A stretch of DNA of 64,000 nucleotides from Lentisphaerota bacterium (GCA_015061725.1 SUVX01000001.1:64940-128939), one strand, 5' to 3'. Shown: positions 19,632 to 46,600, counted from the first letter of the stretch. The notes: generated by a model from the sequence alone, not told the origin. Numbers and translations: made by a program.

Positions 19632-21065
19632 TCACTGCACTTTAAAAACACTGTGCAGCGGTGTTTGAAATAACGGAAGCAAGGTCACCCCGAACCGTTC
19701 AGCAACGGTTCCGGGGTTTTCTTTTTTGTGGATAACAACCAGACTGCCTGCTGCAAGAGCTGCAACTTTTCCCCGGGGACCGTCAAACAGAAACTCACTG
19801 CGCTGTCCGTTGGCAAGGATATAATACATCGACGGCCAGGGATCAGCCAGAAAAGAAAAATAAACCGGAGGAAGAACACTGTTGCGCCCGTAGATTTTTT
19901 CAAGCTCCTGAGCTGTCTGCTGCGGAACATGATCTTTTCGCATATAGAAACCATAGAAGAAATCATCTCCGCTCCTGTTGCCGCAATATCCGGAAAGAAA
20001 TTCTTTCGTGCTTTCCTGCTTCAATACAAACGCTGACAACAGAACAACACAACCGAGAATCCCGAAAAGAATACGCGCCATCTGCTTTCTCTCTTGTCTG
20101 AAGGCTGAACAACAGCGTATTCCGTTGGCAACAATCAAACCAAGCAGCGGCAGCAGCGGAAAGAACACTCTCGGGAAAGGTGCTGTCGGCAATAAAATCA
20201 CGGCAGAAGCCGGCAAAAGCAAAATACCCATTCTTATAACAACGCTGTAATTACAGCGCCGTATCAATGCCGCAAACCACACAATCCAGAGAACACCGAA
20301 TACACATCCGGCAGTAACGCTCCAGGCAAGCAGAACGGCTTTACCATCCTGCCACCCCTCCCCCAGACGGCATACGCCGAGAAAGGATTTCAAAATCGGC
20401 AGATAAAAGACAGCAAGTGCGGCAAAAGGGGTCAAACAAAGTAACCAGAAACGTTTTTTACTCCAGAAGGATTTACCGGCAAGCGGCAGAGCATACAGCA
20501 CACAGCCGCCCAGCGCAAGAAGATTGCTGGGAATCGTTCCGACCGCAAGCAGACAGGAAACAGCATATTTTCCCCAAGTAAAAAAATCGGCTTTCCTCTG
20601 AAAATCGACGGCAAATTTAACAGCAAGAGCTGTAAAAAAGGCACTTGCCATGTAACCGCGCAACGCTGTTGCATAAATCAGAAACGGCGGAGAAAGAGCC
20701 AATGCACTCAACGCCAGCAACAGCGGATATCTGCCGCACGTTCTGCGGAAAGAAACATAGAGTACCAGCAAGGTTCCTGTGGCAAAAAGCAGAGAAAGCA
20801 AACGTAAAAAGAAATCCGCCCTGAAAAAATCAACAGGCAGCTGCGCCCAATAATGTAAGGCTATCGTGTAAAAAATCTGATTATTGGGAATAACATAACT
20901 GAAATAAATCCTGACCGGATCAGGCATCCAGGCAAAGTTCATCAAAGTCAATGCTTCATCAAACCAGAATTCCCGCAGAAGATACGGATGAGCAAAAAAA
21001 AGGAAAGCTGCAAACGCACCGATTTCCGGCAGATAACTGCGCGTCTTACCGTCTCGTATCTTCAT
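19632..21065 (-). CDS. polytopic membrane glycosyltransferase, GT39/ArnT(PMT_2)-like
   Basis: 477 aa, about 11 TM segments. First-loop FWFDEALT (DE motif). The stop abuts the convergent stop at 19631. Confidence 0.55.
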   Translation of the reverse strand: MKIRDGKTRSYLPEIGAFAAFLFFAHPYLLREFWFDEALTLMNFAWMPDPVRIYFSYVIPNNQIFYTIALHYWAQLPVDFFRADFFLRLLSLLFATGTLLVLYVSFRRTCGRYPLLLALSALALSPPFLIYATALRGYMASAFFTALAVKFAVDFQRKADFFTWGKYAVSCLLAVGTIPSNLLALGGCVLYALPLAGKSFWSKKRFWLLCLTPFAALAVFYLPILKSFLGVCRLGEGWQDGKAVLLAWSVTAGCVFGVLWIVWFAALIRRCNYSVVIRMGILLLPASAVILLPTAPFPRVFFPLLPLLGLIVANGIRCCSAFRQERKQMARILFGILGCVVLLSAFVLKQESTKEFLSGYCGNRSGDDFFYGFYMRKDHVPQQTAQELEKIYGRNSVLPPVYFSFLADPWPSMYYILANGQRSEFLFDGPRGKVAALAAGSLVVIHKKENPGTVAERFGVTLLPLFQTPLHSVFKVQ

Positions 21066-21095: not shown

Positions 21096-21126
21096 AAAAA
21101 AAGCCGGAGGAAAAATCTCCTCCGGC
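21096..21126 (-). terminator. rho-independent terminator of the ferredoxin gene
   Basis: Minus strand reads GCCGGAGGA-gatttt-TCCTCCGGC followed by T7, 25 nt after the stop at 21152. Confidence 0.8.
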
Positions 21127-21369: not shown

Positions 21370-21445
21370 TGGCATCTCCAATGGGATTCGAACCCATGTT
21401 ACCGGGATGAGAACCCGATGTCCTAGGCCTCTAGACGATGGAGAC
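21370..21445 (-). tRNA. tRNA-Glu (anticodon CUC), CCA encoded
   Basis: 76 nt: GTCTCCA TC GTCT AGAGGCCTA GGAC A TCGGG TTCTCAT CCCGG TAAC ATGGG TTCGAAT CCCAT TGGAGAT G CCA. The cloverleaf folds by hand (G1-U72 wobble). Close to the canonical bacterial tRNA-Glu layout. Confidence 0.9.
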
Positions 21446-21591: not shown

Positions 21592-23811
21592 TCAATCAAC
21601 GTCAAGTTGAATATCTCCGGATACATCTCTTATAACTTTGCCCGGCAGAATAATATCCGCCGAACATCCTGAGGGTATCTCCATCCGGCAGATGATTTTA
21701 TTTTCAGAACGCAACCATTGACTTGTGATTTTTCCGTAAAAAGATTTATAAGAAGCAGTTACCCGGTCAAGTTTTTTTACAAAACAGGGCTGTATGATAA
21801 ATTTACGGAATCCGGGCGTATCCGGCAGCGGACGAAGTCCGCCCGGATACTGATACATCCATGCGGAGATATCTCCGAACATGATATGGTTCAGAGAATC
21901 CTTGCCATTCCAATTTTCCCAAAGAGACGTTGCCCCTTTTCCGATCTGCCATCCCCAGCCGGGAAATTCCTTTTGAGTAATGATTTCAAATGCATCGTCG
22001 GCATATCCGTACTCTGCAAGAACCCGGGGAACGAATTTGGCGCCCAGTATACCGAATTCAGCTTTATGCTGTTCGGCACGCACCTGTTCAACCAGATACT
22101 TCACACTGTTCAAAGCTTTTTTTCCATCAATAATTTTGAAATACAATGCCGCCGCAGTTGCTGTCTGTGCACCATCGGCAAAAGAACCGTCAGCATTGGC
22201 AAATTTTTTCACAAAAGCCTGTCTGATGTTTTCTGCAAGTTTCTGATAACCGTAAGCATCCTCTTTTCTGCCGAGCAATTCCGCAAAAAACACCATGCGT
22301 CTGACATTCTGATAATAATATCCGCTTGAAGTAACTTCCACAGGTGTTATTGCCCGCCTGTCCCGGTGACACCAGTCGCCGAGTCCGAAATCAAGCAGAT
22401 AATCCTCTGCACGGCTTTCACAGTACTCCAGATAAAGTTTGAAGTTATCATAATATTTTTCAATCAAATCCATCTTGCCGTAAAAAAGATAAATCTGATA
22501 GGGATATTCAAAGAGAACTGTATCCCATGCCGGACCATTTCCCCAGTTGAATCCCCATCCGCCGGTGGGAGCGATTCCGGGAAGTTGTCCGTCAGGACGC
22601 TGCGTATCAACAACAATTTGCAGATAATGTGCAAATTGCTGCTCCATATCAAAGTTCCACAAACCGGTTTCAGCGGCAATTTGAGCATCGCCCGTCCACC
22701 CGTTCTTTTCACGGTGGGGACAGTCTGTGGGAATTCCGACATAATTGGAACGGAAACTTTGCAGCGTATTCCGCTGAAGTTTGTTCAACAGGGCATCAGA
22801 GGAATCAAACGTTCCGACAGTATCAAATGCCGTATGCACAAACTGCGCCCGGATATCCAGAAGTTCGGCGTTGTCATCAATCCACACCTGAGCATAACGG
22901 AAACCATGATAAGTAAATGACGGCTCGTAAATTTCTCCGTCCGGATCCCCCCTGAGGATATATTGATCGGTTTGAAAACAACCGAATGAACCGACGTTGA
23001 AATATTGGGAAATTTCCATTGTATTGATATTTTTGGAAACCGGATCGATCTTTTCGGAGTACATGATCCGCACTGTTGAGCCGGATTTCCCCCTGACTTT
23101 GATCCGGCACCAGCCTGAGAGGTTTGTACCGAAATCATAAACAGTTTCCCAGCCGGACATCTGAAAACTTTCAACGGGACGGTAACTTTCTGTAACTTTA
23201 CACGGTCTTTGCGTTTCAAGCGTTACTCTGCCCCCCGGAGGCGTACAGTACGACGCCCGTTTCCATGAAGAGTCATCCAAATCAGGTTCAGAAAATCCGG
23301 GGATTTCCAGACGGGCATCGTAATGCTGACCATGACGCAATTCATTGTATGTCACAGGACTGTCATGAACGCCCCAACTGTTATCACTTTTTGCAATAAC
23401 ATTGCCGTCAACGACGATATCGCACAACATTTTCGGATAATCCCGCCACGGTGCTTTATCAAAACTCCATTTGGCGACACGACAGTTGAATAAACCGTTT
23501 CCCAACAGAACTGCAACCGCATTTCTGCCCTGTTTAAGCAGATGAGAAACATCATATCTGATGAAACTTACATGGCGGTCAAATTGAGTGACGCCCGGAG
23601 CAAGCACCCTGTCATCAGCTTTTTTCCCGTTGACATAAAGTTCGTGCCATCCCAATCCGCACAGATAAATTTCTGCGTTCTGCGGCGTATCTGCACAAGT
23701 AAAAGTTTTGCGGAGATAAGGTGCGGGATAAACAACTTCCCCCGGAGCAACCATCACTTTCCCGGCACTGATCCAGCGTCCGGACCATCGGCGTTCAATA
23801 CTTTTATCCAT
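21592..23811 (-). CDS. alpha-L-rhamnosidase (GH78)
   Basis: About 740 aa with the GH78 layout. Blocks: RKTF...IYLCGLGWHELYVNGKK, the (alpha/alpha)6 region TDCPHREKNGWTGD, and GATSLWENW. The ORF-track start at 23898 overlaps the GH2 gene. I prefer the ATG at 23811 (GAGGAG Shine-Dalgarno). Confidence 0.85.
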   Translation of the reverse strand: MDKSIERRWSGRWISAGKVMVAPGEVVYPAPYLRKTFTCADTPQNAEIYLCGLGWHELYVNGKKADDRVLAPGVTQFDRHVSFIRYDVSHLLKQGRNAVAVLLGNGLFNCRVAKWSFDKAPWRDYPKMLCDIVVDGNVIAKSDNSWGVHDSPVTYNELRHGQHYDARLEIPGFSEPDLDDSSWKRASYCTPPGGRVTLETQRPCKVTESYRPVESFQMSGWETVYDFGTNLSGWCRIKVRGKSGSTVRIMYSEKIDPVSKNINTMEISQYFNVGSFGCFQTDQYILRGDPDGEIYEPSFTYHGFRYAQVWIDDNAELLDIRAQFVHTAFDTVGTFDSSDALLNKLQRNTLQSFRSNYVGIPTDCPHREKNGWTGDAQIAAETGLWNFDMEQQFAHYLQIVVDTQRPDGQLPGIAPTGGWGFNWGNGPAWDTVLFEYPYQIYLFYGKMDLIEKYYDNFKLYLEYCESRAEDYLLDFGLGDWCHRDRRAITPVEVTSSGYYYQNVRRMVFFAELLGRKEDAYGYQKLAENIRQAFVKKFANADGSFADGAQTATAAALYFKIIDGKKALNSVKYLVEQVRAEQHKAEFGILGAKFVPRVLAEYGYADDAFEIITQKEFPGWGWQIGKGATSLWENWNGKDSLNHIMFGDISAWMYQYPGGLRPLPDTPGFRKFIIQPCFVKKLDRVTASYKSFYGKITSQWLRSENKIICRMEIPSGCSADIILPGKVIRDVSGDIQLDVD

Positions 23812-23815
23812 AATA

Positions 23816-26263
23816 TTACTCCTCGTAAGATGCGCGCAAGTGCCGGATGACAAGTGCATTTTCAAGGTTCTCAACGGTAAACTCACCATCGGTTTCAATA
23901 GTAAGCGATCGAGGTTTTCCCGGAAGAAGCGTAAAACTGTTATCTGAAAACTTAGCCTTTATTCCCTTAAATTCTGCAAAAACGTAAAAAGCGGGCTTAT
24001 CTGAAGCAAGTTTCAGATACATTTTGCCATCTTCTCCCTGTGAGATTTCATGCTGAATCTGCACTTCCGGCAGCTGGTATTCTTTATATCGGGCAAGAAA
24101 ACACTCATTGGTACAACTGAAAGTACCGTTATCGAACTCAAGATAGAGAAAGTCCTCTGCAGGAGTGGATGTCAACTCTTCAAGCGGAAATGTCTCCAAT
24201 ACCGCCGCCGAATAGGGCGCAAGGTCAACGGCAATCTTTCTTTGAGAAACAAGTTCTCCGGTGACTTTATAAAGAGAGAGTGTGATGTTTCCGCAGACAG
24301 GCTCTCCTGAATCGCTGACAGCACGCACCTCAACCGTGTCCGGTGTCTTGCGGATCGCCGTTACAAGGACGGGCGCATAGAATCTTTTTGCATGATAGTG
24401 CAGCTGCTTCCAGTTGCCGAAATAGTCAATACTTGACCATGATGCCACGGGCCAGTTGTCATTGAGCTGCCAATAGATCGTTCCCATACAAATCGGCTTC
24501 AATGTGCGCCAGAATTCAACGCCGCTTTTCATCGCAACAGCCTGCTGAACCTGACTCAAATAAATAAAATCCTCAAAGGTTGCGGGAAAACGGAAGTAAC
24601 GGGTGAACATCTCTACGATTTTGGAGTTTCCCGCCGCATTGCGCTGATGGTGTTCCATCAACGGAGAGGTCACATTGCGCTGTTTGCCCTGCGTAAAAAA
24701 GTCCACAGTATTCTGTGCCGGAAATGCCTGAAAACCGAATTCAGAACAGAAACGCGGGGTAATGGCGTAATAAGCCTCCATATCTGCGCCGGAGTGCCAG
24801 ACTTTCCAATAGTGCATATCGCCCTGAGAATCGTCATCCCAGCCGCTGATATCCTCCTGACTGTTACAGGGACTCGTCGGCCAGAAAACGCGCGTGGGAT
24901 CAGCCATCTTTACGGCCTTGCCGACAGCCTGATTGAATCGGTCATAATTCAGGACCCAGGGCAGTTCTTTCTGTCCGATACACCTTAAAAATCCGCCGCA
25001 TTCGTTATCGCCGCACCAGAGGGCGATACAGGCATGGTCTCGCAGACGTTTGATCTGGTAATCAAGCTCAGCCGACACCAGAGCAAGGAAATCCTCTGTT
25101 GACGGATAATGCGCACAGGCAAACATACAATCATGCCAGAGCAGAATACCTTTTTCGTCGCACAAGGCATAAAAATCTTCGTTTTCATACAGCCCGCCGC
25201 CCCAGACCCGCAGCGTATTCATATTGGCGGCAATCACATCAGAAAGCAGTTTGCAGTAACGTTCCCGGGAATAAGTCTGCGGACGGGCATCCATGGGAAT
25301 CCAATCAGCACCTTTGGCAAAGACGGCGAGCCCGTTAACTTCAAAATAAAGGCAAACGCCATGTTCATCAGGCTGACTGACTGTTTTCAAATCGCGCAGA
25401 CCGATCTTTTTACAAACGGTGCAGGAATCAGCTTCAACTTTCAAATCATACAGCGGCTGATCACCGTAACCTGCGGGATACCACAACTTTGGATTTTTGA
25501 CTTCAAAGAACGTTTCAATTTTGTTTTCTCCCCGGCAGAGACAGACAGAGACTTTTTTCACAGTACCGTCGAAGGTGAAAACGACGTCCTGAATACCGTC
25601 AAAATCAGAATTGATTTCAGCCGTCACATTCAATACGCACAAACCGGGACTGTGTTTCTGCTCCGTATAAACGTGTTCTATTTGAACGCCGTTTGAACCG
25701 TAAAGTCCGATGTTGCCGTAAATGCCGCTGACGGGAATGCACGGTCCCCAATCCCAGCCGCCGTGACACTGAACCTTACGGACAAGGTTGAGATTGGGAA
25801 TTTTACGCCAATAATTTGTTTTACAGCCGAGTTTAAAAGAAAGTTTTTCCTCTTCAGCTTCTGCGTATTTTTCTACTGCGGAAATAATAACTTTGATACT
25901 GTTTTCACCCTCACGCAGAAAGGCTTTCACGTCCCGGCGGATACGCAGAAACATATTCCGGCTGCCAAGGACTTTTTTTCCGTTGATAAAAACTTCTCCG
26001 ACCGTATCCAGAGAATCGATTTCAAGCCAAATTCGTTCCTGTTTCAAAAAATTGTCATCCACCTCAAAGCTGCGGGACCATGTCCAGTTGTGATTTCTCA
26101 CCCACTGAATCTCTTTTTCATTGACTCCGATATAAGGATCCGGGACAATTCCAGCTTCAATCAACGCGGAACAGTTTTCTCCGGGAATTTGTGCCGGAAT
26201 GGGTGAAAAGTTTTCTTTATCGCAGGTCAGAGACCAGATACCTGCAAGGTCGATTTGTGACAT
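23816..26263 (-). CDS. GH2 glycoside hydrolase, beta-mannosidase-like
   Basis: 815 aa. GH2 sugar-binding N-domain, then the TIM-barrel blocks NMNTLRVWGGGLYE, ALWCGDNE and FCSEFGFQ (acid/base and nucleophile Glu context). Confidence 0.8.
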   Translation of the reverse strand: MSQIDLAGIWSLTCDKENFSPIPAQIPGENCSALIEAGIVPDPYIGVNEKEIQWVRNHNWTWSRSFEVDDNFLKQERIWLEIDSLDTVGEVFINGKKVLGSRNMFLRIRRDVKAFLREGENSIKVIISAVEKYAEAEEEKLSFKLGCKTNYWRKIPNLNLVRKVQCHGGWDWGPCIPVSGIYGNIGLYGSNGVQIEHVYTEQKHSPGLCVLNVTAEINSDFDGIQDVVFTFDGTVKKVSVCLCRGENKIETFFEVKNPKLWYPAGYGDQPLYDLKVEADSCTVCKKIGLRDLKTVSQPDEHGVCLYFEVNGLAVFAKGADWIPMDARPQTYSRERYCKLLSDVIAANMNTLRVWGGGLYENEDFYALCDEKGILLWHDCMFACAHYPSTEDFLALVSAELDYQIKRLRDHACIALWCGDNECGGFLRCIGQKELPWVLNYDRFNQAVGKAVKMADPTRVFWPTSPCNSQEDISGWDDDSQGDMHYWKVWHSGADMEAYYAITPRFCSEFGFQAFPAQNTVDFFTQGKQRNVTSPLMEHHQRNAAGNSKIVEMFTRYFRFPATFEDFIYLSQVQQAVAMKSGVEFWRTLKPICMGTIYWQLNDNWPVASWSSIDYFGNWKQLHYHAKRFYAPVLVTAIRKTPDTVEVRAVSDSGEPVCGNITLSLYKVTGELVSQRKIAVDLAPYSAAVLETFPLEELTSTPAEDFLYLEFDNGTFSCTNECFLARYKEYQLPEVQIQHEISQGEDGKMYLKLASDKPAFYVFAEFKGIKAKFSDNSFTLLPGKPRSLTIETDGEFTVENLENALVIRHLRASYEE

Positions 26264-26385: not shown

Positions 26386-27303
26386 TTACTCAAACTTGAC
26401 TGAAACATTCTCCGGCAGATATTTCAACAGTACATCGGCTGTTTCTTTTAATCGGGCAATATCCGGAGAAGCCGTCTGCGGCAATGTATCATTCATACCC
26501 GCAACAGCATATTTATTTTTTGCCTTATCGTGATAAGCAAGCAGCTGAACCCTGCATAAAGAGTCGATTTGAGAAAGTAAAACACCCGAAGCTTCAATAT
26601 CCTCTGCAAAATCATTGAATCCCGGAATAATCGGCATACGGATTTCAATACCTGTTCCATAAGCACTGATTTTTTTCAGATTGTCATGGATTTGCAGATT
26701 GTCTTTTCCGGTATGCTCTCTGTGCCTTTTGACATCCATTCCTTTCAAGTCAAAAAGAACCAGATCTGTATAAGGAAGAATCTCTTTGAAATTTTCAAAA
26801 TCAACAGCTCCGCAGGTATCCAATGCAGTATGAATACCGTTTTCTTTCAGACGTTTGAATAATGTTGAAACAAATTCAGGATACAGCGCAGGCTCTCCTC
26901 CGGAAACTGTTACACCTCCCTCAGGAGTAAAAAAGTCCCGGTCACGAAGCACGCAACTTAAAACATCGTCAATAGACATCATTTTTCCGCAAAGTTCAAG
27001 CGCATCACTCAGACAGTTTTCAGCACATTTTCCACAGGAAAGACATTTTGCCCGTGCCAGGAGATGTTTTCCGTTGACATCAAAAGTATGTACATTCTGA
27101 GGGCAGAGTCTGACACACTCCCCGCAATTTGAACAGAGCATTTCATGATAAAGCAGCTGCGGATGGGCAGAAACAGATTCTGGATTATGACACCAGATAC
27201 AATGCAGCGGACAGCCTTTGACAAAAACGGTATCCCGGATCCCCGGACCGTCATGTATCGTCAGACGGCGGATTGAAACGATCGGTATTTGTAAATTTTT
27301 CAA
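26386..27303 (-). CDS. glycyl-radical enzyme activating enzyme (radical SAM)
   Basis: 305 aa. HDGPGIRDTVFVKGCPLHCIWCHNPE (CxxxCxxC) plus two ferredoxin-like clusters (CSNCGECVRLCP, CLSCGKCAENC). The start overlaps the GRE stop (ATGA). Confidence 0.9.
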   Translation of the reverse strand: MKNLQIPIVSIRRLTIHDGPGIRDTVFVKGCPLHCIWCHNPESVSAHPQLLYHEMLCSNCGECVRLCPQNVHTFDVNGKHLLARAKCLSCGKCAENCLSDALELCGKMMSIDDVLSCVLRDRDFFTPEGGVTVSGGEPALYPEFVSTLFKRLKENGIHTALDTCGAVDFENFKEILPYTDLVLFDLKGMDVKRHREHTGKDNLQIHDNLKKISAYGTGIEIRMPIIPGFNDFAEDIEASGVLLSQIDSLCRVQLLAYHDKAKNKYAVAGMNDTLPQTASPDIARLKETADVLLKYLPENVSVKFE

Positions 27304-29462
27304 TTTTCAGCTCCGTTTTCTGCTTCTGCAATAAATGTTTCCTGAATATGCGGTGCAAGATCAATGAACCGGACATTCCAACCGCAGAGACGGATTTGCA
27401 GATTGCTGTATTTCTGAGGGTTCTGCTGCGCTGCACGGAGTGTTTCCGGAGAAAGCATATTAAATTGAAGAAACAAGCCGCCGCGGGCAAAAAAGGTGCG
27501 GATCAAACGGACAATCAATTCAATTCCGGCTGTTCCTGTCACGGAATGCGGAGATAACATCAAATCCAGAACGGCTCCATCCGCAAAAAAAGAGTGATCC
27601 AATTTTGACACACTGTCAATCAATCCGGCAATGCCCTCTTTGTCGCAGGCTGTCGTGCTGCCGCTGTTGCGGGCAAGCGGATCACCGCTCCTTCTGCCGT
27701 CCGGGGTTGCCCCGGTTTCTCTGCCGAAAATATAACACCAGTCGATCGACCAGAGTCCCATTTGATAATGTCCGCCTTTGACATTTGGCGTACTTTTGAT
27801 TTGTTCTCCTGCTGAATGAGCAATGATCTCAGCAAGAGAATCAACCGATTCTCTGCCGTTTCCCCATTTGGGGACACGTTTGACGGCATAAAGACGCAGC
27901 TGCTCCTGATTCATCCAATTTTGATTCAATAATTCCCCTAATTCAGGGAATGAAATTTTATGTTCCGCAAAGACCAGCTGGCGGATCGCTTCCAGAGAAT
28001 CGGCAGCCGTTCCGAGTCCGGCACACATCACGCCGCTTGTCGCATAACGTGTGCCGTAACAGGAGACATCCAAATTCCGTTCCATGCAGTCATCCATTGT
28101 GCCGGAAAGTAACGGAGAAGGCTGCACGTCTTTCCAGTATTTTTCAAGAGCATCGGCTTTTGTCATAGCTTCAGCCAAATACTTTTTCTGCAGTGCAAGA
28201 TATTTTTGCAGAACATCTTCAAAACAAACAGGAGCAAATGTGTTATCATTGAACAACTCTTCAAACAATCCGGCAAAATTGAACAAAACGGTCATGGTAC
28301 AGGACAACTCCTTACCCATAATAACCGGTTCATAACACCCTACCGGCAAAAAATTGAAAAGATCAGCGGGAATTTTACCGTGACGCAGAAACATTTTTTC
28401 CGCCGCTTTTTCATTAGCAAACACCATTGACGTTTTGCCTTCCTGAATACACTCTGCGGCAAAACGCAGCATATTTTCCGGAGTTTCCGGGTTGACCCGC
28501 AGAGAAAACTTCGGATCTGTACGTCCGAGATCACGGAAAGCCTGCCATGCGATTTCTGTAAGTTCACAACATCCGTCTTTGATCCCCCCTCCTTCATCAG
28601 GAAGACCGCCGCCGAAACAGAACGGTGTGCCGTTATCCAATCCGCCGGACTGAACAAAAAAGCGTGAAAAATAAGCACAGATAAGTCCCCGGGCACTCTC
28701 TTGAGTCAACCGTGCAGCGGCAAGATCAGCTTCGTAAAACGGACGGAACATTCGGTCAAAGATTCCCATTGAACGAACCCATTCCCCCTCAATTTCCTGT
28801 ACTTCACGGTAAAGCAGAGATAACTCCAGAGCCTGATGTAAAGTTCCGGGCGCATGATCGGCAAGAAAGAAAAGCATTTCACTCAAATCATATCTGCCCT
28901 GTTTTTCAGCAAAAGAACCGTAACGCAATAGAAACTGCCTGAATGCCTCGTATACAATGCAAACGGATTCCGCAAAGGGCGACGGATTTTTTCTGAAATT
29001 ATCTTCAGCGCGTTTCAGGAGTCCCGGGACACCCAGAGTCAAAACATTATCCCAGTCCGGGGAAGTATGACTTAAATCCAAACGGCTGCGGTAAACCCCT
29101 GTTTTCACAGCCTCAGACGCGGATACAGTTTCTCCCAGAGAAAGTTTTGCATAAAACGCTTTGCGTTCCTGTTGAATGAGCAATATTTCACTTTTGGGAC
29201 CGGAACTTAAAGTCCGCCGTTCAACGACCGATGCAAACGGGTCAAAATCATTGACAGCGATCCGTACATTTTCCAGAAACGCAACAACCATCCGTGCACG
29301 GGTGATCGGGAACGGAATGCCCTCCCTTTCTCCGGCATCATAGACTTCCCGGATTTTCAAATTCAGTTTTTCAGGAGACAAACCATCACTTCCGGCAAAA
29401 ACAGCCGGATTGAAACTGGACTGCATCTTTTCCAGAAACAAAATCTGTTCAGGTGACAACAT
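27300..29462 (-). CDS. glycyl-radical enzyme, PFL2/eliminase class, substrate unknown
   Basis: 720 aa. Gly loop QIRLCGWNVRF (G694, nt 27381-27383). Cys loop LPVGCYEPV (C376/E378, nt 28329-28337). Also a GATPDGRRSGDPLARN block. Confidence 0.85.
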   Translation of the reverse strand: MLSPEQILFLEKMQSSFNPAVFAGSDGLSPEKLNLKIREVYDAGEREGIPFPITRARMVVAFLENVRIAVNDFDPFASVVERRTLSSGPKSEILLIQQERKAFYAKLSLGETVSASEAVKTGVYRSRLDLSHTSPDWDNVLTLGVPGLLKRAEDNFRKNPSPFAESVCIVYEAFRQFLLRYGSFAEKQGRYDLSEMLFFLADHAPGTLHQALELSLLYREVQEIEGEWVRSMGIFDRMFRPFYEADLAAARLTQESARGLICAYFSRFFVQSGGLDNGTPFCFGGGLPDEGGGIKDGCCELTEIAWQAFRDLGRTDPKFSLRVNPETPENMLRFAAECIQEGKTSMVFANEKAAEKMFLRHGKIPADLFNFLPVGCYEPVIMGKELSCTMTVLFNFAGLFEELFNDNTFAPVCFEDVLQKYLALQKKYLAEAMTKADALEKYWKDVQPSPLLSGTMDDCMERNLDVSCYGTRYATSGVMCAGLGTAADSLEAIRQLVFAEHKISFPELGELLNQNWMNQEQLRLYAVKRVPKWGNGRESVDSLAEIIAHSAGEQIKSTPNVKGGHYQMGLWSIDWCYIFGRETGATPDGRRSGDPLARNSGSTTACDKEGIAGLIDSVSKLDHSFFADGAVLDLMLSPHSVTGTAGIELIVRLIRTFFARGGLFLQFNMLSPETLRAAQQNPQKYSNLQIRLCGWNVRFIDLAPHIQETFIAEAENGAEN

Positions 29463-29476
29463 TTTATAAAACCATT

Positions 29477-32440
29477 TCAGTCAGCATACTTTAAAACTTT
29501 CAGTTTTGTATCATCAAAACCGTTTGTGATCCCCTCTGAAAAATCCAGATGATACGGTGCGGATTTCATCGTCTTCCAGTTATTGTTAAAAATAACAAAG
29601 CCAAAACGTGTTGCTTTTCCGCCGATGGCACTCCACGGAATGGCTGCTTCGTAAAAAGTCTCATTGCCTTTGCGGGTAACGCGGGCAGGATAAGTTTTGA
29701 GTCCGCATTCTTTTCCGAGATATTTGACGAGCTGCGTACCATGCGCCGTTAAAGCCAAACCGAAATTGTATTCAAAAACAGGTTTTCCGCCGGTTGCGGA
29801 CTCCTTTATGCCCTCGTGCGACAAAACAAATTGGATACTGTCATCTTTCCACAGCTCAAGAGCCGCCTGCCGCTGCAAATGCACCGGGTCATCAACTTTG
29901 ACTGCAAGATAAAAATTATTATCGTCATACGCCGTCCAGTACCGGGCAGAAATATTGTGTCCGTTGGGATTGAAACTGGTCTTGAAATAACGCCTTTCAG
30001 GTTGAAGAGCCTCTGCGGGATGGATGTGATCCGGATACTTGAGCAATCCGCTTTTCAAATTGGTCAGCCACTTGCCGGAACCGTCAAATACTGGCCGGGA
30101 TTTGATTTTGGGAACAGTGTAAAAATCGACTTTGGAAAGTTCAACAGCATATTCGCGTCCATCCGGAGCAATCAATTTGCCGTTTCCGGCCACTTTTGCA
30201 GAAACAACCGTCGTTTTTCCGGGAAAGACTTTGACTGTTTTTTCTGCCTGCCCCGGAAGTTTCAATTTACATTCGCGGGTAAGAGCGGCAAAACTCTGGA
30301 TATAAACAGTGTCAGAAGTCGCTGAACATTTAAATTCCGGAGAATTGTTCAACACCGCCTTTGTCACCAAAGCAACCGCCTGAGCCGGAGACATCTTAAC
30401 ATTAAGATAAACCGGGGCTTTTCCAATCACAAGATTTTTTACCGGAATGGAGCGTCCATACATATTGATCCCACGGGTTCCGGAAGGGAAATCGCAGACA
30501 AATTTCTGCTCCCGGGCAATATTCCAAAGTGTGATCAAAACAGAGCCATCCGGCTTTTTAAAGAGATAACTGTAAATGTTGCCGCTTTTGATCTCCGCAA
30601 GAGACTTTGCAAAGGAAAGCTCTCCGGCGGCCGTTGCATACATTGCTCCGCCCGGCTGCAGGATATCATACCATCTTTTGCCCCAATATACAGGCTTCCA
30701 AATCGTGGTCATACACACAGCATCATCTTTGGGGTCAATCAAGCGGATGTGATGATATGTCGGCATGTGCAGTTCAAAACGGCTGACAGGCGCATAACGG
30801 GTAATAATCATGGTGCGGGCGGTAAGATATGCCTGTTCAACGGCAAGACCTTTATCAAAACGCGCACCGTAATTGATGGCGTAACCGGTTTCATCATTGC
30901 GGATAAACTTACCTTTGCCCAGAGAGGCTGACAGATTTGATGCCGCATTGTAGAAATTCATCAAATTCAATTCCGGAATGGAATGCCGACCAAGTCTCAT
31001 ATCCCAGTTTCCGGTATAGGCATCAATGGCGTATTCATCAAAATCATTCACCAGATCGCCCATGACGATGCGTTCGACAGTTTCGGTGTATTCCTGACGG
31101 TTATTGCCGCCGACAATGATTTTCATTCCCGGATCAACCGCTTTCAGTGCCCGGCTGATCATGCGGGCGCGAACCATCATATTGAACATTGCCTCCGTCC
31201 AGGTGGAACACAGCGTTTTTGAACTCCCGCCGATCGCATTAGTGGGAATCTCACAACCGATGATCCATTCGCGGATCCTTCCTTTGGTTTTCGAGTGGAT
31301 ATTTTTCACACAATCAAGCAACTGTTTCAGTACAGGATCGGACATGAGCGGCCAGCCGGCCTTGAGTTCTTCTTTGTTTCTGAAAGATGAATGCAAAGAA
31401 CATCCCACTGCAATTGCAAGCTGAAGATCGGGATCATCAAGAAACGGTTTATTGAAATTCACAAAACGCGCAGCAAAGTCTTCTGCGGATAAACGCATCA
31501 AATCCGGTTGCTGAAAATTGTGACTTTTCAAAACAATCGAACCGCCGCCGACACGCTTTATCCCCTTAATTATATCAGAGGTTGCGCCGTAACTGTATTG
31601 AAAAAACGGGTCAAGTTTTTTTAACGGCACATTTACAGCAAAAGCACTCTGAAGTTCATACACTTTTTTCCCGGAAGAAAAAAGCTCTGCTTCAATGATA
31701 TAATATCCGGCTTTCTGTTTGGGAAGAGTAAAGTTCTCTTCATATTTTTTCGCAGAAGAACTGTACACTTTTTTTCCGCTTTCGTCTTTGACAGAAAGAG
31801 TGTAAGTCAAATCGCGTACGGTACTGTCTATCAGAAAACGGCACCCAATTGTTTCATCAGGCGTGAAAAAACCAAAGGTTCCACCGGGAATAATTGCCGC
31901 TTTTTTTACAATATTCCCGTAAGATTTACGGAAAAAACTGTTGCCCGAATTGCTTTGGATTTTAACAATTTTCAAATCATCAAACCAGACAGTTCCCTGA
32001 CAGGTCAGAATCGGCATAACAGTCACTTTATTGCTCTTGAAAAAAGAACTTTTTAATCTGCGGGTACACTTTGTCCAATCAAAACTGCCCTGCTGCGGCA
32101 GATATTTCGGATCGGCGGTGACGGCAAAAAAATTCTTTCCGTCAGTTAAACGCAGCAATGCGCCTTTATATTTCCCGCCTTTGACATTTTGTGCTTTGAT
32201 GTAAACAGAAACTTCGTATTCTGCTCCGGGTTCCAGTTTGATGACTTTTGAAACACTGGCAGCATTGACAAGTTTTAAAGAACCGCCTGCTGAAATTTTT
32301 TCTGAAAAATCAAAGTAAACGGCTCTATTGTTCTTAATCCAGCCCGGCAAACCTTTTCTGAAAGAAAAATCAGAATCAGCTGCAAAGACATAAAAAGCAA
32401 CAAACAAACATAAAAACAGAAAAATATTTTTCATTTTCAA
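29477..32440 (-). CDS. exported 987-aa multidomain protein (N-terminal CBM4_9-like, central possible TIM-barrel glycosidase-like region, C-terminal CBM9/DOMON-like)
   Basis: Signal peptide MKMKNIFLFLCLFVAFYVFA. N-domain with GSFDWT...VWFDDLKI. C-domain with ARYWTAYDDNNFYLAVKVDDPVH...WKDDSIQFVL. The central region has candidate catalytic EIP/ETGY Glu contexts, but I cannot assign a family. Confidence 0.6.
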   Translation of the reverse strand: MKMKNIFLFLCLFVAFYVFAADSDFSFRKGLPGWIKNNRAVYFDFSEKISAGGSLKLVNAASVSKVIKLEPGAEYEVSVYIKAQNVKGGKYKGALLRLTDGKNFFAVTADPKYLPQQGSFDWTKCTRRLKSSFFKSNKVTVMPILTCQGTVWFDDLKIVKIQSNSGNSFFRKSYGNIVKKAAIIPGGTFGFFTPDETIGCRFLIDSTVRDLTYTLSVKDESGKKVYSSSAKKYEENFTLPKQKAGYYIIEAELFSSGKKVYELQSAFAVNVPLKKLDPFFQYSYGATSDIIKGIKRVGGGSIVLKSHNFQQPDLMRLSAEDFAARFVNFNKPFLDDPDLQLAIAVGCSLHSSFRNKEELKAGWPLMSDPVLKQLLDCVKNIHSKTKGRIREWIIGCEIPTNAIGGSSKTLCSTWTEAMFNMMVRARMISRALKAVDPGMKIIVGGNNRQEYTETVERIVMGDLVNDFDEYAIDAYTGNWDMRLGRHSIPELNLMNFYNAASNLSASLGKGKFIRNDETGYAINYGARFDKGLAVEQAYLTARTMIITRYAPVSRFELHMPTYHHIRLIDPKDDAVCMTTIWKPVYWGKRWYDILQPGGAMYATAAGELSFAKSLAEIKSGNIYSYLFKKPDGSVLITLWNIAREQKFVCDFPSGTRGINMYGRSIPVKNLVIGKAPVYLNVKMSPAQAVALVTKAVLNNSPEFKCSATSDTVYIQSFAALTRECKLKLPGQAEKTVKVFPGKTTVVSAKVAGNGKLIAPDGREYAVELSKVDFYTVPKIKSRPVFDGSGKWLTNLKSGLLKYPDHIHPAEALQPERRYFKTSFNPNGHNISARYWTAYDDNNFYLAVKVDDPVHLQRQAALELWKDDSIQFVLSHEGIKESATGGKPVFEYNFGLALTAHGTQLVKYLGKECGLKTYPARVTRKGNETFYEAAIPWSAIGGKATRFGFVIFNNNWKTMKSAPYHLDFSEGITNGFDDTKLKVLKYAD

Positions 32441-32452
32441 TTCTGCCGCAGG

Positions 32453-33247
32453 TTATTTTGTCCAGGGATCAGTCATATAATTGACCGGACGGTTATTGAC
32501 GAAACTCACATGACCGTCGATCCAAAGAAAGTTGCTGCCGTCACCGTGTGCGCCATTGATCCCCCACGGCTGCTTATTGTCGGCTACGGAATCTCTGGGC
32601 AGACAATTATCTGTATCAGAGGAAGCACCGAAGTGCATTTTTATTTTCCAGTTATCAGCCAGAAGCGGCAGCGTGGAAAGGGTAAACTTTCTGAGTTCAG
32701 AAATCTTGCTTACTGCCAGTTTGGGATTGGCTGCAGGCTTTTCGTCGCGAATCAGATAATTGGACCCGTAACCTGTCGGCATGGGAAAGTTTTTAAAAGT
32801 CCAGTAATTCACACCGTTAAACGGATTTACCTCAGGAGAAGACGGACACTCAAAATATTTCCGGAACAACGCTCTGCTTTTGGTGGCTCTTGTCGCATGA
32901 TCAGAACCACTGACTTGAGTTGATAATTGAGAGTAAGTCATGTAACACGGCATTCCGGCAGCCGGAGAAGTTACCATAATCAGAGCATAATATTCTTTCG
33001 TATCGCTGCCGCCCACCAGTCTGCCGACATTGGAAACCATATAACCATCACTGCCGTCAACATAAAACTGCCAGAATGTCCCCTGCTGTTTCACTTTGTT
33101 TGTACAATCAATCTTCTTTGCCGTATCACGGGCTTTCTGTAAAGCAGGCATCAGCATTGCCGCTAAAATTGCGATGATGGCAATTACAACCAGCAGTTCA
33201 ATAAGAGTAAATCTGCCGTCACAATTTTTCACAAGTGATTTTTTCAT
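32453..33247 (-). CDS. DUF1559-type protein with a prepilin-like N-terminal methylation/cleavage motif
   Basis: 264 aa. [41 protein letters not shown], with a C-terminal DGHV motif. AGGAAG Shine-Dalgarno. The stop lies 12 nt before the next gene's start. Confidence 0.85.
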
Positions 33248-33591: not shown

Positions 33592-34452
33592 ATGGATTGG
33601 ATTTCTTATGACATTCAAAAAATAGATCGCCTCGGAACTTTTCCTTTCCGGGTAAAAATGCTGTATTTTTCACACCGTCATTCGGTCGGCAACCGTCATG
33701 GATATACGCCGGAAGATATGTTTGAAATCTCCATCCGTTTTGAACCGCAGGAAACAATCTGCACAGATATTATCAACGGGCAGGCGATCAGAGAGACTTT
33801 TCCCAACATGGTATGGAAAAAGCCGGGTGGAAAACATTATTTTCAGATAGCTCACCCCCGCGATGCCATTTCATTCGGTTATCCGGCAGAATCGGAAGAC
33901 GATTTCCGCAAACTCGGACTTTATTCAGACAGAGAAAGTATGTCTTTTTCTGTAACGCCGAAAATTGAACAGCTTGCGGGAGAATTCCGAAAACTCAGCC
34001 TTCAACTTTATACCCCCGGAGTGGCAGATCAGATAGATTGGATATGTTTTCAGCTTTATCGTGAAATATTTTATTCTGATCTGTTGAAATCCGGCGGTCA
34101 GGACGATGCCGAAAAAATCCGCAACATTTCAGTCTGGTTTCAGGTCCATTATTCAGAAACTATCGATTTGGAAAAAATTGCCCGTATCAACGGTTATTCC
34201 CGTTCAGCCTTTTTCAGAAACTGGAAACGTTTTTTTCAGACAACACCGACACAATATCTGCTTGATCTGAAACTTGACGCGGCAACCCGTTTTCTGATAA
34301 ATACCAATCTGCCGATCAATGAAATCGTGCGCGAAATCAACTTCTCCGGCTCTACGGCATTTCACAAGCGTTTTTATCAGCGGTACGGTGTAACCCCGGG
34401 AGAATACCGCCGATTGCATTCAGCGGACAAACTGCCGGAATACAGCCAATAG
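33592..34452 (+). CDS. AraC-family transcriptional regulator
   Basis: 286 aa. C-terminal double HTH (ARINGYSRSAFFRNWKRFFQTTPTQYLLDLKLDAATRFL...INFSGSTAFHKRFYQRYGVTPGEYR). Confidence 0.9.
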   Translation: MDWISYDIQKIDRLGTFPFRVKMLYFSHRHSVGNRHGYTPEDMFEISIRFEPQETICTDIINGQAIRETFPNMVWKKPGGKHYFQIAHPRDAISFGYPAESEDDFRKLGLYSDRESMSFSVTPKIEQLAGEFRKLSLQLYTPGVADQIDWICFQLYREIFYSDLLKSGGQDDAEKIRNISVWFQVHYSETIDLEKIARINGYSRSAFFRNWKRFFQTTPTQYLLDLKLDAATRFLINTNLPINEIVREINFSGSTAFHKRFYQRYGVTPGEYRRLHSADKLPEYSQ

Positions 34453-43346: not shown

Positions 43347-43664
43347 ATGGAACAGCCAATTATAGCAAATGGTGGATTGCAGTATGTGCCGCAAATTGCG
43401 GTGCAGTATGTGTATCTGGACTTTGACGGGGAATTAACCAGTTACAACGGAGAAATTCTGACCGTTGACAATGTGGAAGTGCAGGACTCTTCTTTGACAG
43501 AGGAACGCATTGCCAATATTGTTGCAGAACTCAATGCCAAATATGCGGATATTCCACCATCTACATTGGCAAAACAGAAGCCTTTGCTCCCTACGGCAAC
43601 TTTGCCGGATTGGCAGAAACCATTGACAAGGGCAACAAAATCTCAACCGACAAAGCCTTTGTGA
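43347..43664 (+). pseudogene. N-terminal fragment of the large RTX/beta-helix protein gene, separated from the main ORF by a frameshift
   Basis: GGGAGA Shine-Dalgarno plus ATG. MEQPIIANGG...VYLDFDGELTSYNG...AELNAKYA then runs out of frame. The +2 frame continues from ~43550 as YSTIYIGKTEAFAPYGNFAGLAETIDKGN into the 1114-aa ORF. Confidence 0.6.
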
Positions 43665-46600
43665 TGCTGGATTCCACCGCCAGTAACGAAACAATAATTT
43701 CCACCATTTCCCACGAAACCGACCACCTTCTGGGTACTCTCGATCACGGCGGCGAAGGCCTCGCCGCCTATGCGGTCTCCAAGACATATTCCTCCGGTTA
43801 TCACAACTCCATGTTAATTATTTCCGGAGATGATATTACGCTGACCGGATCTGCAGCCACCTACTCATCTATCATTTCCTCCGGAGGCCGCTTGACTCTC
43901 AGCAGCGGCGGCAGTGCCGACACTGTGGAAATCAGAAACGGCGGTACTTTGATTCTGGGAGCAGGCGGCAAGTTGTACATGGGAGTTATTTCCTCCGGCG
44001 GAAGTATTTATACTGCATCCAGCGGCACATATCATATCGGTGCTCTGGATATCCAGAACGGCGCAATCGTCTGGGTTTCCGGCGATGCACGACTGAGTGA
44101 TTTGACAGTTTATTCCGGCGGAGTATTATATTTATCATCCGGCGTCACTTCCTGCAGTCGGCTGGAGGTCAGTTCAGGGGGGAGTGTTACCGTTTTCAAC
44201 GGTGCAATTCTTTCCGGGGCTCAGTTATTGGAATCCAAGGCCCGGCTGCTCGTAAGCAGCGGAGGATCGGCAATCAATACCAGCCTCTATGCAGGTACGA
44301 CTGTAGATGTGTATCAAGGCGGAGTTGTTACAGATGTACGCCGTATGAATGGGTGGTCGTCCGACTGCCAGATCAATGTCAGAGGCGGCAGCCTGCTGAA
44401 TACGATGTTATACGCTACTGTTGCAGATATCTATTCCGGGGGAATCGTATCGGATGCCCGGGTTATGAGTGGCATGCTCCGGGTATACAATGGCGGTTTG
44501 GCAAACAGTATAACGCTTTCAAAGGGTGGTTATGCAGTGTTTGCCGATTATGCCAGGGGCAGTAAAGTTACTGTACAATCCGGCGGTCATCTGGATATTT
44601 ACACTACCGGAACTGTGATTTCTGATCTTGAAGTTGAAAGCGGCGGGATTTTACAGGGATTTTTGATCGGGGCGACACATAAATTCAGTTCGGCAAGCGG
44701 TGCGGAAATCAAACCATTTTCCAATGTTTCCATAAAAAGATCTTTGATGACTGTTTCCAGCGGCAATGTTTCCGCGTTGGGGGCAGTCGTAAGTTCGGCA
44801 ATAATCCATATTTCCTCCGGCGGCAAGGTCAGTTCTCTTGAATTGGCAAAAGGCGCAAAATGCCATATCAAAAGCGGCGGGATCGTTTCCAGCGGCGAAG
44901 TAAAAAACAGCAACACCACCGTCGTTGTTTCCTCCGGCGGTCAAATGACAGGCGGGACACTTGCAGCTTCTGCAACGCTGGCAGTTTCCGGCGGCACGAT
45001 CCGCAATATAAGCGCAACGGATTGGTCCAAAATCAATCTTCGTTCCGGCGCAACAGCTGAAAATGTAACCGTTTGGGACGACAGCAAGTTAACAATTTCA
45101 GCCGGAGCATCTGCTTTTCTGCCCATGATTCAGGCAGAATCAGGTTATATCGACGTCCAGGGAGGAATGTGTGTCTCGGCACTGGTCAACAACGGTGGAG
45201 CTTTCGTTATAACCAGCAGCGGTGTTGCCAGTAAAACCACTATTCAGGGCAACGGTCGCGGCGGAGTGTATGCTGGAAAATTTATTGATACATCCGTTAC
45301 CAATGGTACATTGTCTGTCAACAGCGGCGGAAATGTCATCAATACCTCACTGGGGTATAACGGAAAGCTTGTCGTTTACTCAAACGGAACAGCTTCAGAT
45401 ACTTACATTGATATGGGCGGAACTGCGATCGTGGGCGGTCCATCAATTATTCAGTCTTCCGGAAAAATGATTGACACAACCGTAAATTCCGGCGGCAAAC
45501 TCTCTGTCGCCAAAGGCGGTACTGTTGAAAACGTGACCGTAAATTCCGGCGGCAGCATGTATATCGACGGCGGAGGAACCTTTACCGGAGAATTGACCAT
45601 TGCTGACGGAGGATGGGTTGAAGGCAACGGTGCGATATTTGATCTGGATATCAGTGATCGTTCCACTGAAGATAACGCTTTGATCAACGTTATTTCATTT
45701 ATTGTCGGCTCGCCGGAATTTTTGATTACGGTGGATACCGATCAGGCATACGGCGTTTACAAACTTGCTTCCGGAGCCGGCGGCAGAGATTTTACCTTTA
45801 CCGTCCGGAATCAGTTGGGAGGCACGATCGGTTCCGTTTCCACGGCCGATACAGTTGCATATAATTTCAACAAGAGAGATTACAAAGTCAGCAATATAGG
45901 GGGAGAACTTACCTTGACAGTCAGTGCGTCAAGCCCCGGGTTGAGCGGCGATGCTGCCGGTGTCTCATGGAAAAATCTTCCCGGCACTCATTTCGTTGTG
46001 GACTATTCCACAAACGACTACACCAATACCTTGCGTGTCGGTGTTGCCGGCAGTTCACTGGATACCTACGGTTTGCCTGGAGGAACTTATCAGTGGCAAG
46101 TCAAAGAGGTCAATGGAGAATTCATTGCGGGGGATGATATTGTTTCTGATAATACATCTGCTCCGCAGCGATATGTTTCTGATGATGACCGCCAGACGGA
46201 CCTTTTCTTTGCCAGAGCCCATGGTGTCTGGGATGCAGGTTACTCAGCAGAACATCAGGGACGGCTCGGTACATGGAACGGTACAACCGAAAGAGTTTCC
46301 CTTGCGGGCAAAAACAAAATTTCCGATGTGTTTATTGCTTCCGGGGATACCAATATTCTGGTTTTGACGGATGACAGCAACGGTGATGCGTTGTTTTTGG
46401 ATGATGTTTATACTTCGTTCGGCAAGGATGCCGCAAGAATAGCTCACATTGATGAGATCCGCGCCGGTGCCGGTGATGATATCATCGACCTGACCAGTCA
46501 GCAGTTCGCTTACAGCGGCATGGGGATGAATATTTACGGCGGGCTTGGTAATGACATCATTTGGGGTAATACAGGCAGCAATAAATTATTCGGTAATGCA

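Follow-up and report, generated by a model that had tools for sequence, protein, structure and literature searches.

Glycyl radical enzymes (GREs) give anaerobes access to reactions beyond those of ordinary acid/base enzymes, and earlier GRE assignments (choline lyase, hydroxyproline dehydratase, isethionate lyase, and the anhydro-sugar isomerases) each exposed a new gut or environmental pathway. The closest described systems to the enzyme treated here are PflD of Escherichia coli and Streptococcus and YbiW of E. coli, which are GRE isomerases converting 1,5-anhydromannitol-6-phosphate or 1,5-anhydroglucitol-6-phosphate to 1-deoxyfructose-6-phosphate; the B12-independent glycerol dehydratase (GD) of Clostridium butyricum; the propanediol dehydratase (PD) of Roseburia inulinivorans, which is tied to host fucose/rhamnose catabolism; and PFL2 of Archaeoglobus fulgidus, a GRE of solved structure and debated function. 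In this study, we analyzed a GRE and its activating enzyme (activase) encoded in a 64,000-nt stretch of DNA from a Lentisphaerota bacterium (hereafter, the window), where both genes belong to a minus-strand operon with an AraC-family regulator on the plus strand. The results strongly support the view that this GRE lies outside every characterized GRE family and belongs to a separate compact family with its own active-site signature.

The glycyl radical enzyme, its activase and their hallmarks

The GRE gene (27300..29462, minus strand) encodes a 720-aa protein (MBE6392502.1) that carries the NCBI name "hypothetical protein". Pfam assigns a PFL-like domain (PF02901, residues 127–574, 1.4e-64) and a Gly_radical domain (PF01228, residues 606–700, 6.5e-18). 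Translation agrees with the original prediction on this open reading frame and both of its radical loops. The first is RLCGW within IRLCGWN, where G694 is the predicted glycyl radical site (codon 27381..27383, minus strand). The second is VGCYEP, in which one Cys is followed by x-Glu to form a CxE motif (C376-Y377-E378, codons 28329..28337, minus strand) and no Cys-Cys pair is present. H132 (codon 29067..29069, minus strand) is the equivalent of GD His164 in a pairwise alignment (DLSHTSPDW versus GVGHVSVDY in GD), and C376 and E378 align with GD C433 and E435. A 2026 review assigns these GD residues their roles, with the His as the proposed general acid for the leaving oxygen, the Cys as the hydrogen abstractor, and the Glu as the general base (PMC13450708).

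An AlphaFold (AF2) model of the GRE built from a 32-sequence alignment (pLDDT 89.9, pTM 0.91) has ten barrel strands and places the Cys and Gly loops on hairpins at residues 371–381 and 689–698, respectively. As modeled, the barrel is complete and not truncated. A Foldseek search with the model returned PflD, GD, PD, YbiW, HplG, CutC, and HypD with template modeling (TM) scores of 0.86–0.88 at 20–24% identity. The protein had been described as shorter than the characterized eliminases, and the direction of this claim was right: its 720 aa compare with 765 for PflD, 787 for GD, 810 for YbiW, 824 for HpsG, 830 for IslA, and approximately 843–849 for the PD and CutC chains. The difference arises because the N-terminal region is trimmed and the loops are shorter (residue 129 aligns with GD 161 and PflD 169).

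The activase gene (26386..27303, minus strand) encodes 305 aa (MBE6392501.1), and the NCBI gene call gives the same product. It scores 314.5 bits against TIGR02494 (cut-off 174.35) and contains a CX3CX2C motif at residues 31–38 and two CX2CX2CX3C motifs at 57–67 and 87–97. These motifs correspond to three predicted [4Fe-4S] sites and thus identify a three-cluster activase, as originally proposed. The accompanying claim of an ATGA coupling had to be corrected; the 4-nt overlap is TTGA, with the TTG start of the activase on the TGA stop of the GRE gene. Inspection of the N-termini revealed no signal peptide in the GRE, the activase, or the two glycoside hydrolases (GH2 and GH78) of the operon.

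Hallmark conservation was assessed in 78 family sequences sharing 27–100% identity with the window GRE. H132, W137, R230, G233, G375, C376, E378, G383, G589, Q689, R691, C693, G694, W695, and N696 are invariant in all of them, while Y377 is kept in 77, D129 in 76, and E385 in 72. At these positions, E. coli PflD and YbiW have instead Gly (D129), Tyr/Phe (W137), Leu/Val (R230), Val/Ile (Y377), Ala (C693), Tyr (W695), and Ser (N696). We propose D129-x2-H132-x4-W137, R230, G-C-Y-E, and Q-x-R-x-C-G-W-N, in proteins of ~680–770 aa, as the signature of "CGWN" sugar-operon GREs.

The GD pocket was mapped onto the window GRE by pairwise sequence alignment and not by model coordinates. Among the residues that we take to be the GD substrate contacts (H281/S282, D447, and Y640), D447 is replaced by M390, S282 by V229, and Y640 by W571, and H281 falls on a gap or on W228. 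Positions 228, 390, 567–572, and 586 differ by subclade, and the catalytic set is fixed; this combination would fit one chemistry acting on several substrates. The window signature (W228, V229, M390, and W571) is common to relatives down to ~50% identity and, in a looser form, down to 36%.

Sequence identity of the window GRE to every solved GRE is 20–25%. By sequence, the solved GREs that match best are E. coli PflD (1.7e-63) and GD (3.9e-62), followed by A. fulgidus PFL2, Streptococcus PflD, and PD. Against the curated models, the window GRE scored 270.8 bits for TIGR01774 (PFL2/GD; cut-off 678.2), 226.9 for NF007437 (PflD-type; 1109), 222 for HpfG (1000), 211 for HypD (1100), and 163 for CutC (1050). 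Every NCBIfam equivalog score was 4–14 fold under its cut-off for the window GRE and 32 family members, and the best TIGR01774 match among 32 diverse relatives (E 3.5e-117) likewise fell far short of the cut-off. Full-text literature searches on GREs combined with the relevant lineages, rhamnosidase, PflD/YbiW, and anhydro-sugars returned nothing on the CGWN clade.

The original prediction of an uncharacterized GRE subfamily is therefore strongly supported by the sub-threshold scores, the low identity to solved GREs, and the family's own hallmarks. It had also named three signs that would speak against it, namely close kinship to a characterized GRE with the same pocket, loss of the Gly and Cys loops in orthologues, and a truncated barrel. 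What was found is 20–24% identity with three differing GD contact positions, loops that are invariant down to 27% identity, and a complete ten-strand model. Since the hallmarks are invariant across this range of identity, the GRE is under selection and not a pseudoenzyme; the complete model, the structural matches, and the invariant hallmarks together rule out a pseudoenzyme or a truncated barrel. The gene pair very probably encodes an active GRE of a new clade.

Distribution, natural fusions and gene neighborhoods

A word-indexed protein search (E up to 1e-10) found 173 relatives. Among the 120 listed, 109 are near full length (≥680 aa), spanning 681–745 aa with a median of 711. A scan of GTDB with one genome per species and two family motifs, whose counts are lower bounds, gave at least 583 confirmed copies. 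The best 80 of these fall in Victivallales/Lentisphaeria (40), Clostridia (13), Armatimonadota (8), Kiritimatiellia (7), Verrucomicrobiota (6), Planctomycetota (3), and WS1 (1), with 2 unclassified; a cultured carrier among the GTDB copies is Victivallis vadensis DSM 14823. With phmmer, all of 1.84 billion representatives of 50%-identity clusters were searched (E up to 1e-30), which returned 1,356 GRE-like clusters, and at least six of the seven hallmarks were present in 112 of the top 150. Several metagenome-assembled genomes hold two or three GRE copies, and tandem GRE-activase-GRE arrangements were seen. In five loci (L030, L056, L061, L065, and L083), a second, divergent GRE of 731–773 aa follows the GRE-activase pair (e.g., L056 4310-6505; L065 12877-15138 and 15555-17750). 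These second copies are 27–30% identical to the window GRE and have all hallmarks, but residues 385 and 571 are His. In such loci, both GREs may depend on a single activase.

Long representatives were found in which a family GRE forms the C-terminal half of a larger polypeptide; the full set of seven hallmarks is present in six of seven, and P0306 has six. The N-terminal part is a GH78 rhamnosidase in P0188 (1509 aa; 2okx, 3.5e-43), a GH2 β-mannosidase in P0282 and P0331 (1533 and 1540 aa; precomputed Pfam), a module resembling acetyl-xylan esterases of carbohydrate esterase (CE) family 7 in P0289 and P0309 (1153 and 1175 aa), a SASA esterase in P0313 (1025 aa), and another recurrent neighbor family in P0290 (1563 aa). 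The window GH2 and the N-terminal half of P0282 share 38% identity over 851 aa, the SASA part of P0313 is 34–39% identical to SASA genes adjoining GREs in five loci, and the P0331 gene (L097 9001-13623) lies two genes from a GH78. Since families that neighbor the GREs are also found covalently attached to them, the GREs would share pathways with these carbohydrate enzymes, and we regard this as strong comparative evidence. The link to glycan breakdown that had been drawn from the window is thus strongly supported, both by the GH78, GH2, CE7, and SASA fusions and by carbohydrate-enzyme neighbors across phyla.

The fusion set also holds a DUF1080-like module, recognized by eye. In the lineage of P0282 and P0331, other fusions join the β-mannosidase-like GH2 to GH5, GH28, GH3, and GH20 plus GDSL modules (e.g., P0334, P0338, P0339, P0343, and P0348), which indicates that this lineage habitually builds multi-enzyme polypeptides.

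Of 76 GRE-bearing loci, 56 contain an activase gene, and an AraC-family gene is the commonest other neighbor. The 111 same-strand operon mates belong to 78 Pfam families, led by CMD/AhpD-like, SASA esterase, GFO/IDH/MocA, GH2, xylose-isomerase-like TIM barrel, and zinc alcohol dehydrogenase (Zn-ADH) families; NAD-epimerase, DUF1559, CBM9, HAD, melibiase, and ABC permease families follow, along with SDR, GH, and CE families. The closest orthologues (66–71% identity) show two layouts. One is that of the window, with AraC divergent from a pseudopilin, a carbohydrate-binding module (CBM) protein, GRE, activase, and GH2, and the other runs RhaA, a gene without a match, GRE, and activase, with AraC and GH2 in adjoining units. 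Clostridial operons consist of DUF5696, two ABC permeases, GFO/IDH/MocA, two Zn-ADH, in some cases GH43, GRE, and activase.

Two further gene families accompany the GREs. A 937-aa protein (L092 11130-13943, GCA_016648415.1) is a GRE activase fused to a DUF5696 domain, and stand-alone DUF5696 proteins head the Clostridial GRE operons (L046 1119-4073, PF18952, E 1.5e-158; a homologue, L075 1406-3940, is in the same BLAST cluster). DUF5696 is therefore tied to the family in two distant lineages. In six loci of the Gly390 subclades (L043, L052, L054, L065, L069, and L073; e.g., L065 15153-15539), the gene after the GRE or its activase is CMD/AhpD-like and encodes ~130 aa (PF02627).

A link to rhamnose was seen in the subclade of the window GRE. 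In non-redundant loci, GH78, GH78-like, or RhaA genes occur within 10 kb in 7 of 30 M390/W571-subclade loci versus 0 of 42 others (Fisher p = 0.0014). By its signature, the GRE half of the GH78 fusion P0188 belongs to the same subclade; RhaA stands two genes upstream of the GRE in L006 and L089; and the GH78, GH2, and GRE trio is found again in a lineage with a GRE of just ~31% identity to that of the window. Taken together, these observations place a rhamnose-related substrate first among the specific hypotheses, although a rhamnose-derived substrate as such is held only tentatively, at somewhat under even confidence. The gene between RhaA and the GRE (L006 8654-9970; L089 7831-8973) encodes a conserved cytoplasmic protein of 380–438 aa, which appears β-helix-like by eye and for which Pfam, NCBIfam, and PDB sequence searches gave no match. 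This protein may provide a step between L-rhamnulose and the GRE.

In the window, six same-strand genes with tight spacing encode the pseudopilin-like protein, the CBM9 protein, GRE, activase, GH2, and GH78. The first product is a pseudopilin-like exported protein (32453..33247, minus strand) with Pfam N_methyl/DUF1559 and SBP_bac_10 matches and a prepilin motif near the N-terminus; L001, L005, and L090 likewise have such a gene ahead of that for the CBM protein. The second (29477..32440, minus strand; probable ATG at 32434) is an exported protein of 987 aa that carries CBM9 at its C-terminus (CBM9_1, residues 820–953, 2.4e-08) and has a signal-peptide-like N-terminus (MKNIFLFLCLFVAFYVFA/ADS). 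It is 70% identical to its L001 orthologue, and a PDB sequence search found no relative. Its central 500 aa match no known domain. It was rejected as a co-evolving GRE partner, as homologues of 38–60% identity exist without a GRE. Pairs of a pseudopilin-like (N_methyl/DUF1559) protein and an exported protein of ~1000 aa are recurrent in Lentisphaerota, whether or not a GRE is present (L094–L096); they often adjoin DUF4838 or GHL10 proteins and look like a general glycan-capture module of this phylum.

Downstream of the activase lies a cytoplasmic GH2 β-mannosidase (23816..26263, minus strand; Pfam Glyco_hydro_2_N2, Mannosidase_ig, and Ig_mannosidase), which matches the Bacteroides β-mannosidase BtMan2A (2je8/2vjx) over its full length (E 1e-143). 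The same gene follows the GRE-activase pair in L001, L005, L006, and L089. The last gene encodes a cytoplasmic GH78 α-L-rhamnosidase (21592..23811, minus strand; four Bac_rhamnosid Pfam domains; PDB 6i60, E 1e-132) with a probable ATG at 23811, 4 nt past the GH2 stop. The exported CBM protein, GH2, and GH78 originally named as neighbors were thereby identified. The divergent AraC-family regulator (33592..34452, plus strand; HTH_18 2.2e-17 and HTH_AraC) shares 68% and 61% identity with its positional counterparts in L001 and L090, respectively. As a candidate relative of E. coli RhaS/RhaR it was rejected; since the similarity is only that of generic HTH domains, nothing was learned on its ligand.

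A tRNA-Glu(CTC) gene (21370..21445, minus strand; Rfam 55.8 bits, ARAGORN) marks the 3' boundary of the operon and is followed by a strong hairpin terminator (21103..21126, minus strand; a stem of 10 pairs and a T-run). This tRNA has its own promoter-like site (21495-21468, 11/12 match). In the promoter and terminator scan of the window, the counts did not exceed those of shuffled sequences (25 versus 23.2 and 25 versus 20.0), and only the tRNA-associated sites were convincing. The tRNA was the only RNA in the Rfam scan of the window, which showed no riboswitch. A 477-aa open reading frame with 8 predicted transmembrane segments and no family match (19632-21065) was not taken as the transporter of the system because the tRNA and terminator lie between. 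No BMC (bacterial microcompartment) shell gene was found in the whole 64 kb by tblastn with PduA, and no aldehyde dehydrogenase or transporter gene lies within ~10 kb of the operon. This absence stands as first noted, but the lack of BMC genes is not in itself unusual for this enzyme class, since the E. coli PflD and YbiW loci are also without them. Within 10 kb, the flanks are housekeeping genes, with GT4, SpoU methylase, PurH, Tmk, HolB, and HflX on one side and TopA, a UDPGP-family uridylyltransferase, and FtsW on the other. Two large proteins of the window are unrelated to the GRE, namely a 1114-aa protein with an AIDA stalk and RTX calcium-binding repeats (43610-46954, plus strand) and a 1639-aa TPR-repeat protein (5800-10719, minus strand).

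Proposed reaction and its alternatives

We propose, with about even confidence, that the window GRE is a cytoplasmic radical C–O eliminase or isomerase acting on a rhamnose-related sugar. Outside the cell, the pseudopilin-like and CBM9 proteins would capture a glycan; in the cytoplasm, the β-mannosidase and α-L-rhamnosidase would trim the imported oligosaccharide. What they release would serve as the GRE substrate, with L-rhamnose or a closely related 6-deoxyhexose derivative (e.g., L-rhamnulose) as the likeliest candidate. The activase would use S-adenosylmethionine (SAM) and a reduced [4Fe-4S] cluster to have hydrogen abstracted from G694, and the glycyl radical would pass on to a thiyl radical on C376. 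The thiyl radical would take hydrogen from a carbinol carbon of the cytoplasmic sugar or sugar-derived polyol, E378 would deprotonate the hydroxyl of the attacked carbon to give a ketyl radical, and protonation of the vicinal oxygen (hydroxyl, ring, or ether) by H132 would break the C–O bond. The resulting α-keto radical would regain hydrogen from C376, yielding a deoxy-keto sugar. We infer these catalytic steps and the substrate from homology and context, and the residues and their conservation are the part observed directly. Cleavage of a C–O bond in a carbohydrate-derived substrate, irrespective of the sugar, is somewhat probable, and this bond is favored because the His/Glu pair (H132 and E378) is kept.

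Several points weigh against the proposal. The substrate is deduced from gene context alone, and rhamnose genes occur in only about a quarter of the M390/W571-subclade loci. Apart from the activase and, often, AraC, no neighbor is constant across the family, and L003 and L011 are bare AraC-GRE-activase units. Relatives of RhaB, RhaD, RhaM, RhaT, and FucO/A/I/K/P/U were absent by tblastn from all of 90 loci including the window; with no RhaB, RhaD, FucO, or aldolase near any locus, no downstream route is visible. The assigned pocket positions depend on a pairwise alignment with GD, not on model coordinates, and that alignment has a gap around residues 226–231. Invariant R230 could mean an anionic substrate (uronate, sugar phosphate, or sulfate). 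In addition, most of the fusions start with Sec-type signal-like hydrophobic segments, a feature conserved between P0282 and P0331, and some of them have alternative internal starts. An exported GRE domain is hard to reconcile with the system because the activase is a cytoplasmic radical-SAM enzyme.

A broader reading, which we consider speculative, is that the family as a whole is an unrecognized class of radical carbohydrate-active enzymes. Working beside or fused to GHs and CEs, they would break C–O bonds that hydrolases cannot, and the subclade pockets would correspond to sugar specificities. Examples would be ring-opening or deoxygenation of L-rhamnose and the release of an O-linked group by a glycoside, and some fused GREs may work outside the cytoplasm.

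Release of an O-linked group, assigned to the window GRE itself, would make it a radical lyase on an intact glycoside or modified sugar, expelling an O-linked substituent vicinal to the attacked carbinol carbon; we hold this to be improbable. The fusions to GH78, GH2, CE7, SASA, and the further neighbor family speak for it, as does the GH2 of the same lineage, whose other partners are GH5, GH28, GH3, and GH20 modules. The varying pocket around fixed catalytic residues is as in a multi-specificity family, genomes hold several paralogues and tandem copies, and the 1,2-elimination could proceed unchanged in mechanism, with OR leaving instead of OH. Such a lyase is without precedent, however, and GREs have pockets that are fitted to the native substrate and closed off during catalysis, with a narrow substrate scope (PMC13450708). 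The W228, M390, and W571 side chains of the window subclade are also bulkier than those of Gly-containing subclades, suggesting a small ligand.

Equally improbable in our view is a BMC-free (S)-1,2-propanediol dehydratase, which would complete a route from rhamnose via L-lactaldehyde and propanediol to propionaldehyde with extra ATP. The rhamnose context and the GH78 fusion agree with this route, the diol-dehydratase His/Glu pair is kept, PD is among the top structural matches, and the M390, V229, and W571 replacements raise the hydrophobicity of the pocket, which would suit a diol with a methyl group. Nevertheless, identity to solved PDs is 20–22% and the Asp of the PD motif WHD is missing in the clade. 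None of the 90 loci has a PduA relative, and FucO and the propanediol-making RhaB and RhaD are absent as described above; no aldehyde dehydrogenase family is among the 25 neighbor Pfam families listed. Fusion of a GRE to the first enzyme of the pathway, five steps away, would be unusual, and multiple paralogues with GH2, CE7, and SASA fusions are ill-suited to a single C3 substrate.

There is a still smaller chance that the GRE is a non-phosphorylated counterpart of PflD/YbiW that yields a 1-deoxy-ketose by ring opening of a 1,5-anhydro-alditol (e.g., 1,5-anhydro-D-mannitol or an anhydro-rhamnitol). In both sequence and structure, the best match is E. coli PflD, with the CxE motif and the His kept. 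GFO/IDH/MocA oxidoreductases, the family to which anhydrofructose reductase belongs, recur beside the GREs, and the product would need no aldehyde-detoxifying partner, in agreement with the absent BMC and aldehyde dehydrogenase. Against this, identity is 24–25%, the NF007437 score is far under its cut-off (227 versus 1109 bits), and PflD and YbiW carry none of the family hallmarks. The window operon is without the phosphotransferase system (PTS), aldolase, and sugar-phosphatase genes of the E. coli loci, and the related loci gave only PTS_EIIA_2 in L003 and HAD-type phosphatases near L018 and L021. No glucan lyase was seen, and GFO/IDH/MocA proteins are very common in these phyla.

Cleavage of a C–N or C–S bond in amino- or sulfo-sugars is similarly remote; invariant R230 and the sulfatase or formylglycine-generating enzyme (FGE) genes that occasionally neighbor family GREs would agree with it, and the retained His/Glu pair favors C–O. 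Pyruvate formate-lyase (PFL), suggested by the PFL-like Pfam domain and by the JGI name "formate C-acetyltransferase" on several homologues, is refuted to near certainty by the single Cys-x-Glu in place of a Cys-Cys pair, by a TIGR01255 score of 71.8 bits against a cut-off of 994.2, and by PFL structures matching only the C-terminal 180 residues (E 3e-15).

If the proposed radical C–O chemistry on sugars is true, a radical step would be added to anaerobic polysaccharide catabolism, along with a new class for catalogues of carbohydrate enzymes. The family is large, is concentrated in poorly studied rumen and gut glycan degraders, and has neither a curated model nor a name. Its ties to rhamnosidase, mannosidase, and esterases, including the fusions, yield substrate hypotheses that are concrete and cheap.

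Comparison with characterized systems

A. fulgidus PFL2 (2f3o; E 2e-57) resembles the window GRE in its compact size (776 aa) and in the Trp after the radical Gly (RVAGW). It differs in having no Cys before this Gly and none of the other hallmarks, with 24% identity, and comes from an archaeal hyperthermophile; we know of no carbohydrate-enzyme context for it. The R. inulinivorans PD (5i2g; TM score 0.87) shares the CxE motif and the His. Its identity is 22%, however, the HMMER alignment is in two pieces, the window GRE is ~125 aa shorter and does not keep the WHD Asp, and its locus is without BMC or aldehyde-processing genes.

The C. butyricum GD (1r8w; TM score 0.87) has equivalents of the radical Gly and the catalytic Cys, Glu435, and His164, so that its acid/base elimination mechanism can be transferred to the window GRE as a proposal. 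In contrast to GD, the window GRE (24% identity) has replaced contact residues, is 67 aa shorter, and has no 1,3-propanediol dehydrogenase as a neighbor.

PflD (8yjo; TM score 0.86) is the top match in sequence and fold. The window GRE shares with PflD and YbiW the CxE motif and the His after β-1, the lack of a microcompartment, and an adjacent activase with two auxiliary clusters, and the PflD/YbiW substrates are themselves sugar derivatives. It is nevertheless only 24–25% identical to them and ~45–90 aa shorter, and their sequences are without the family hallmarks. Unlike the E. coli PflD/YbiW loci, none of the 90 loci has an FsaA relative by tblastn, and a context of GHs and CEs takes the place of the PTS, aldolase, and phosphatase genes. 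In terms of reaction type, the window GRE would join GD and PflD among the radical 1,2-eliminases/isomerases, but in a distinct, uncharacterized family and with a pocket of its own.

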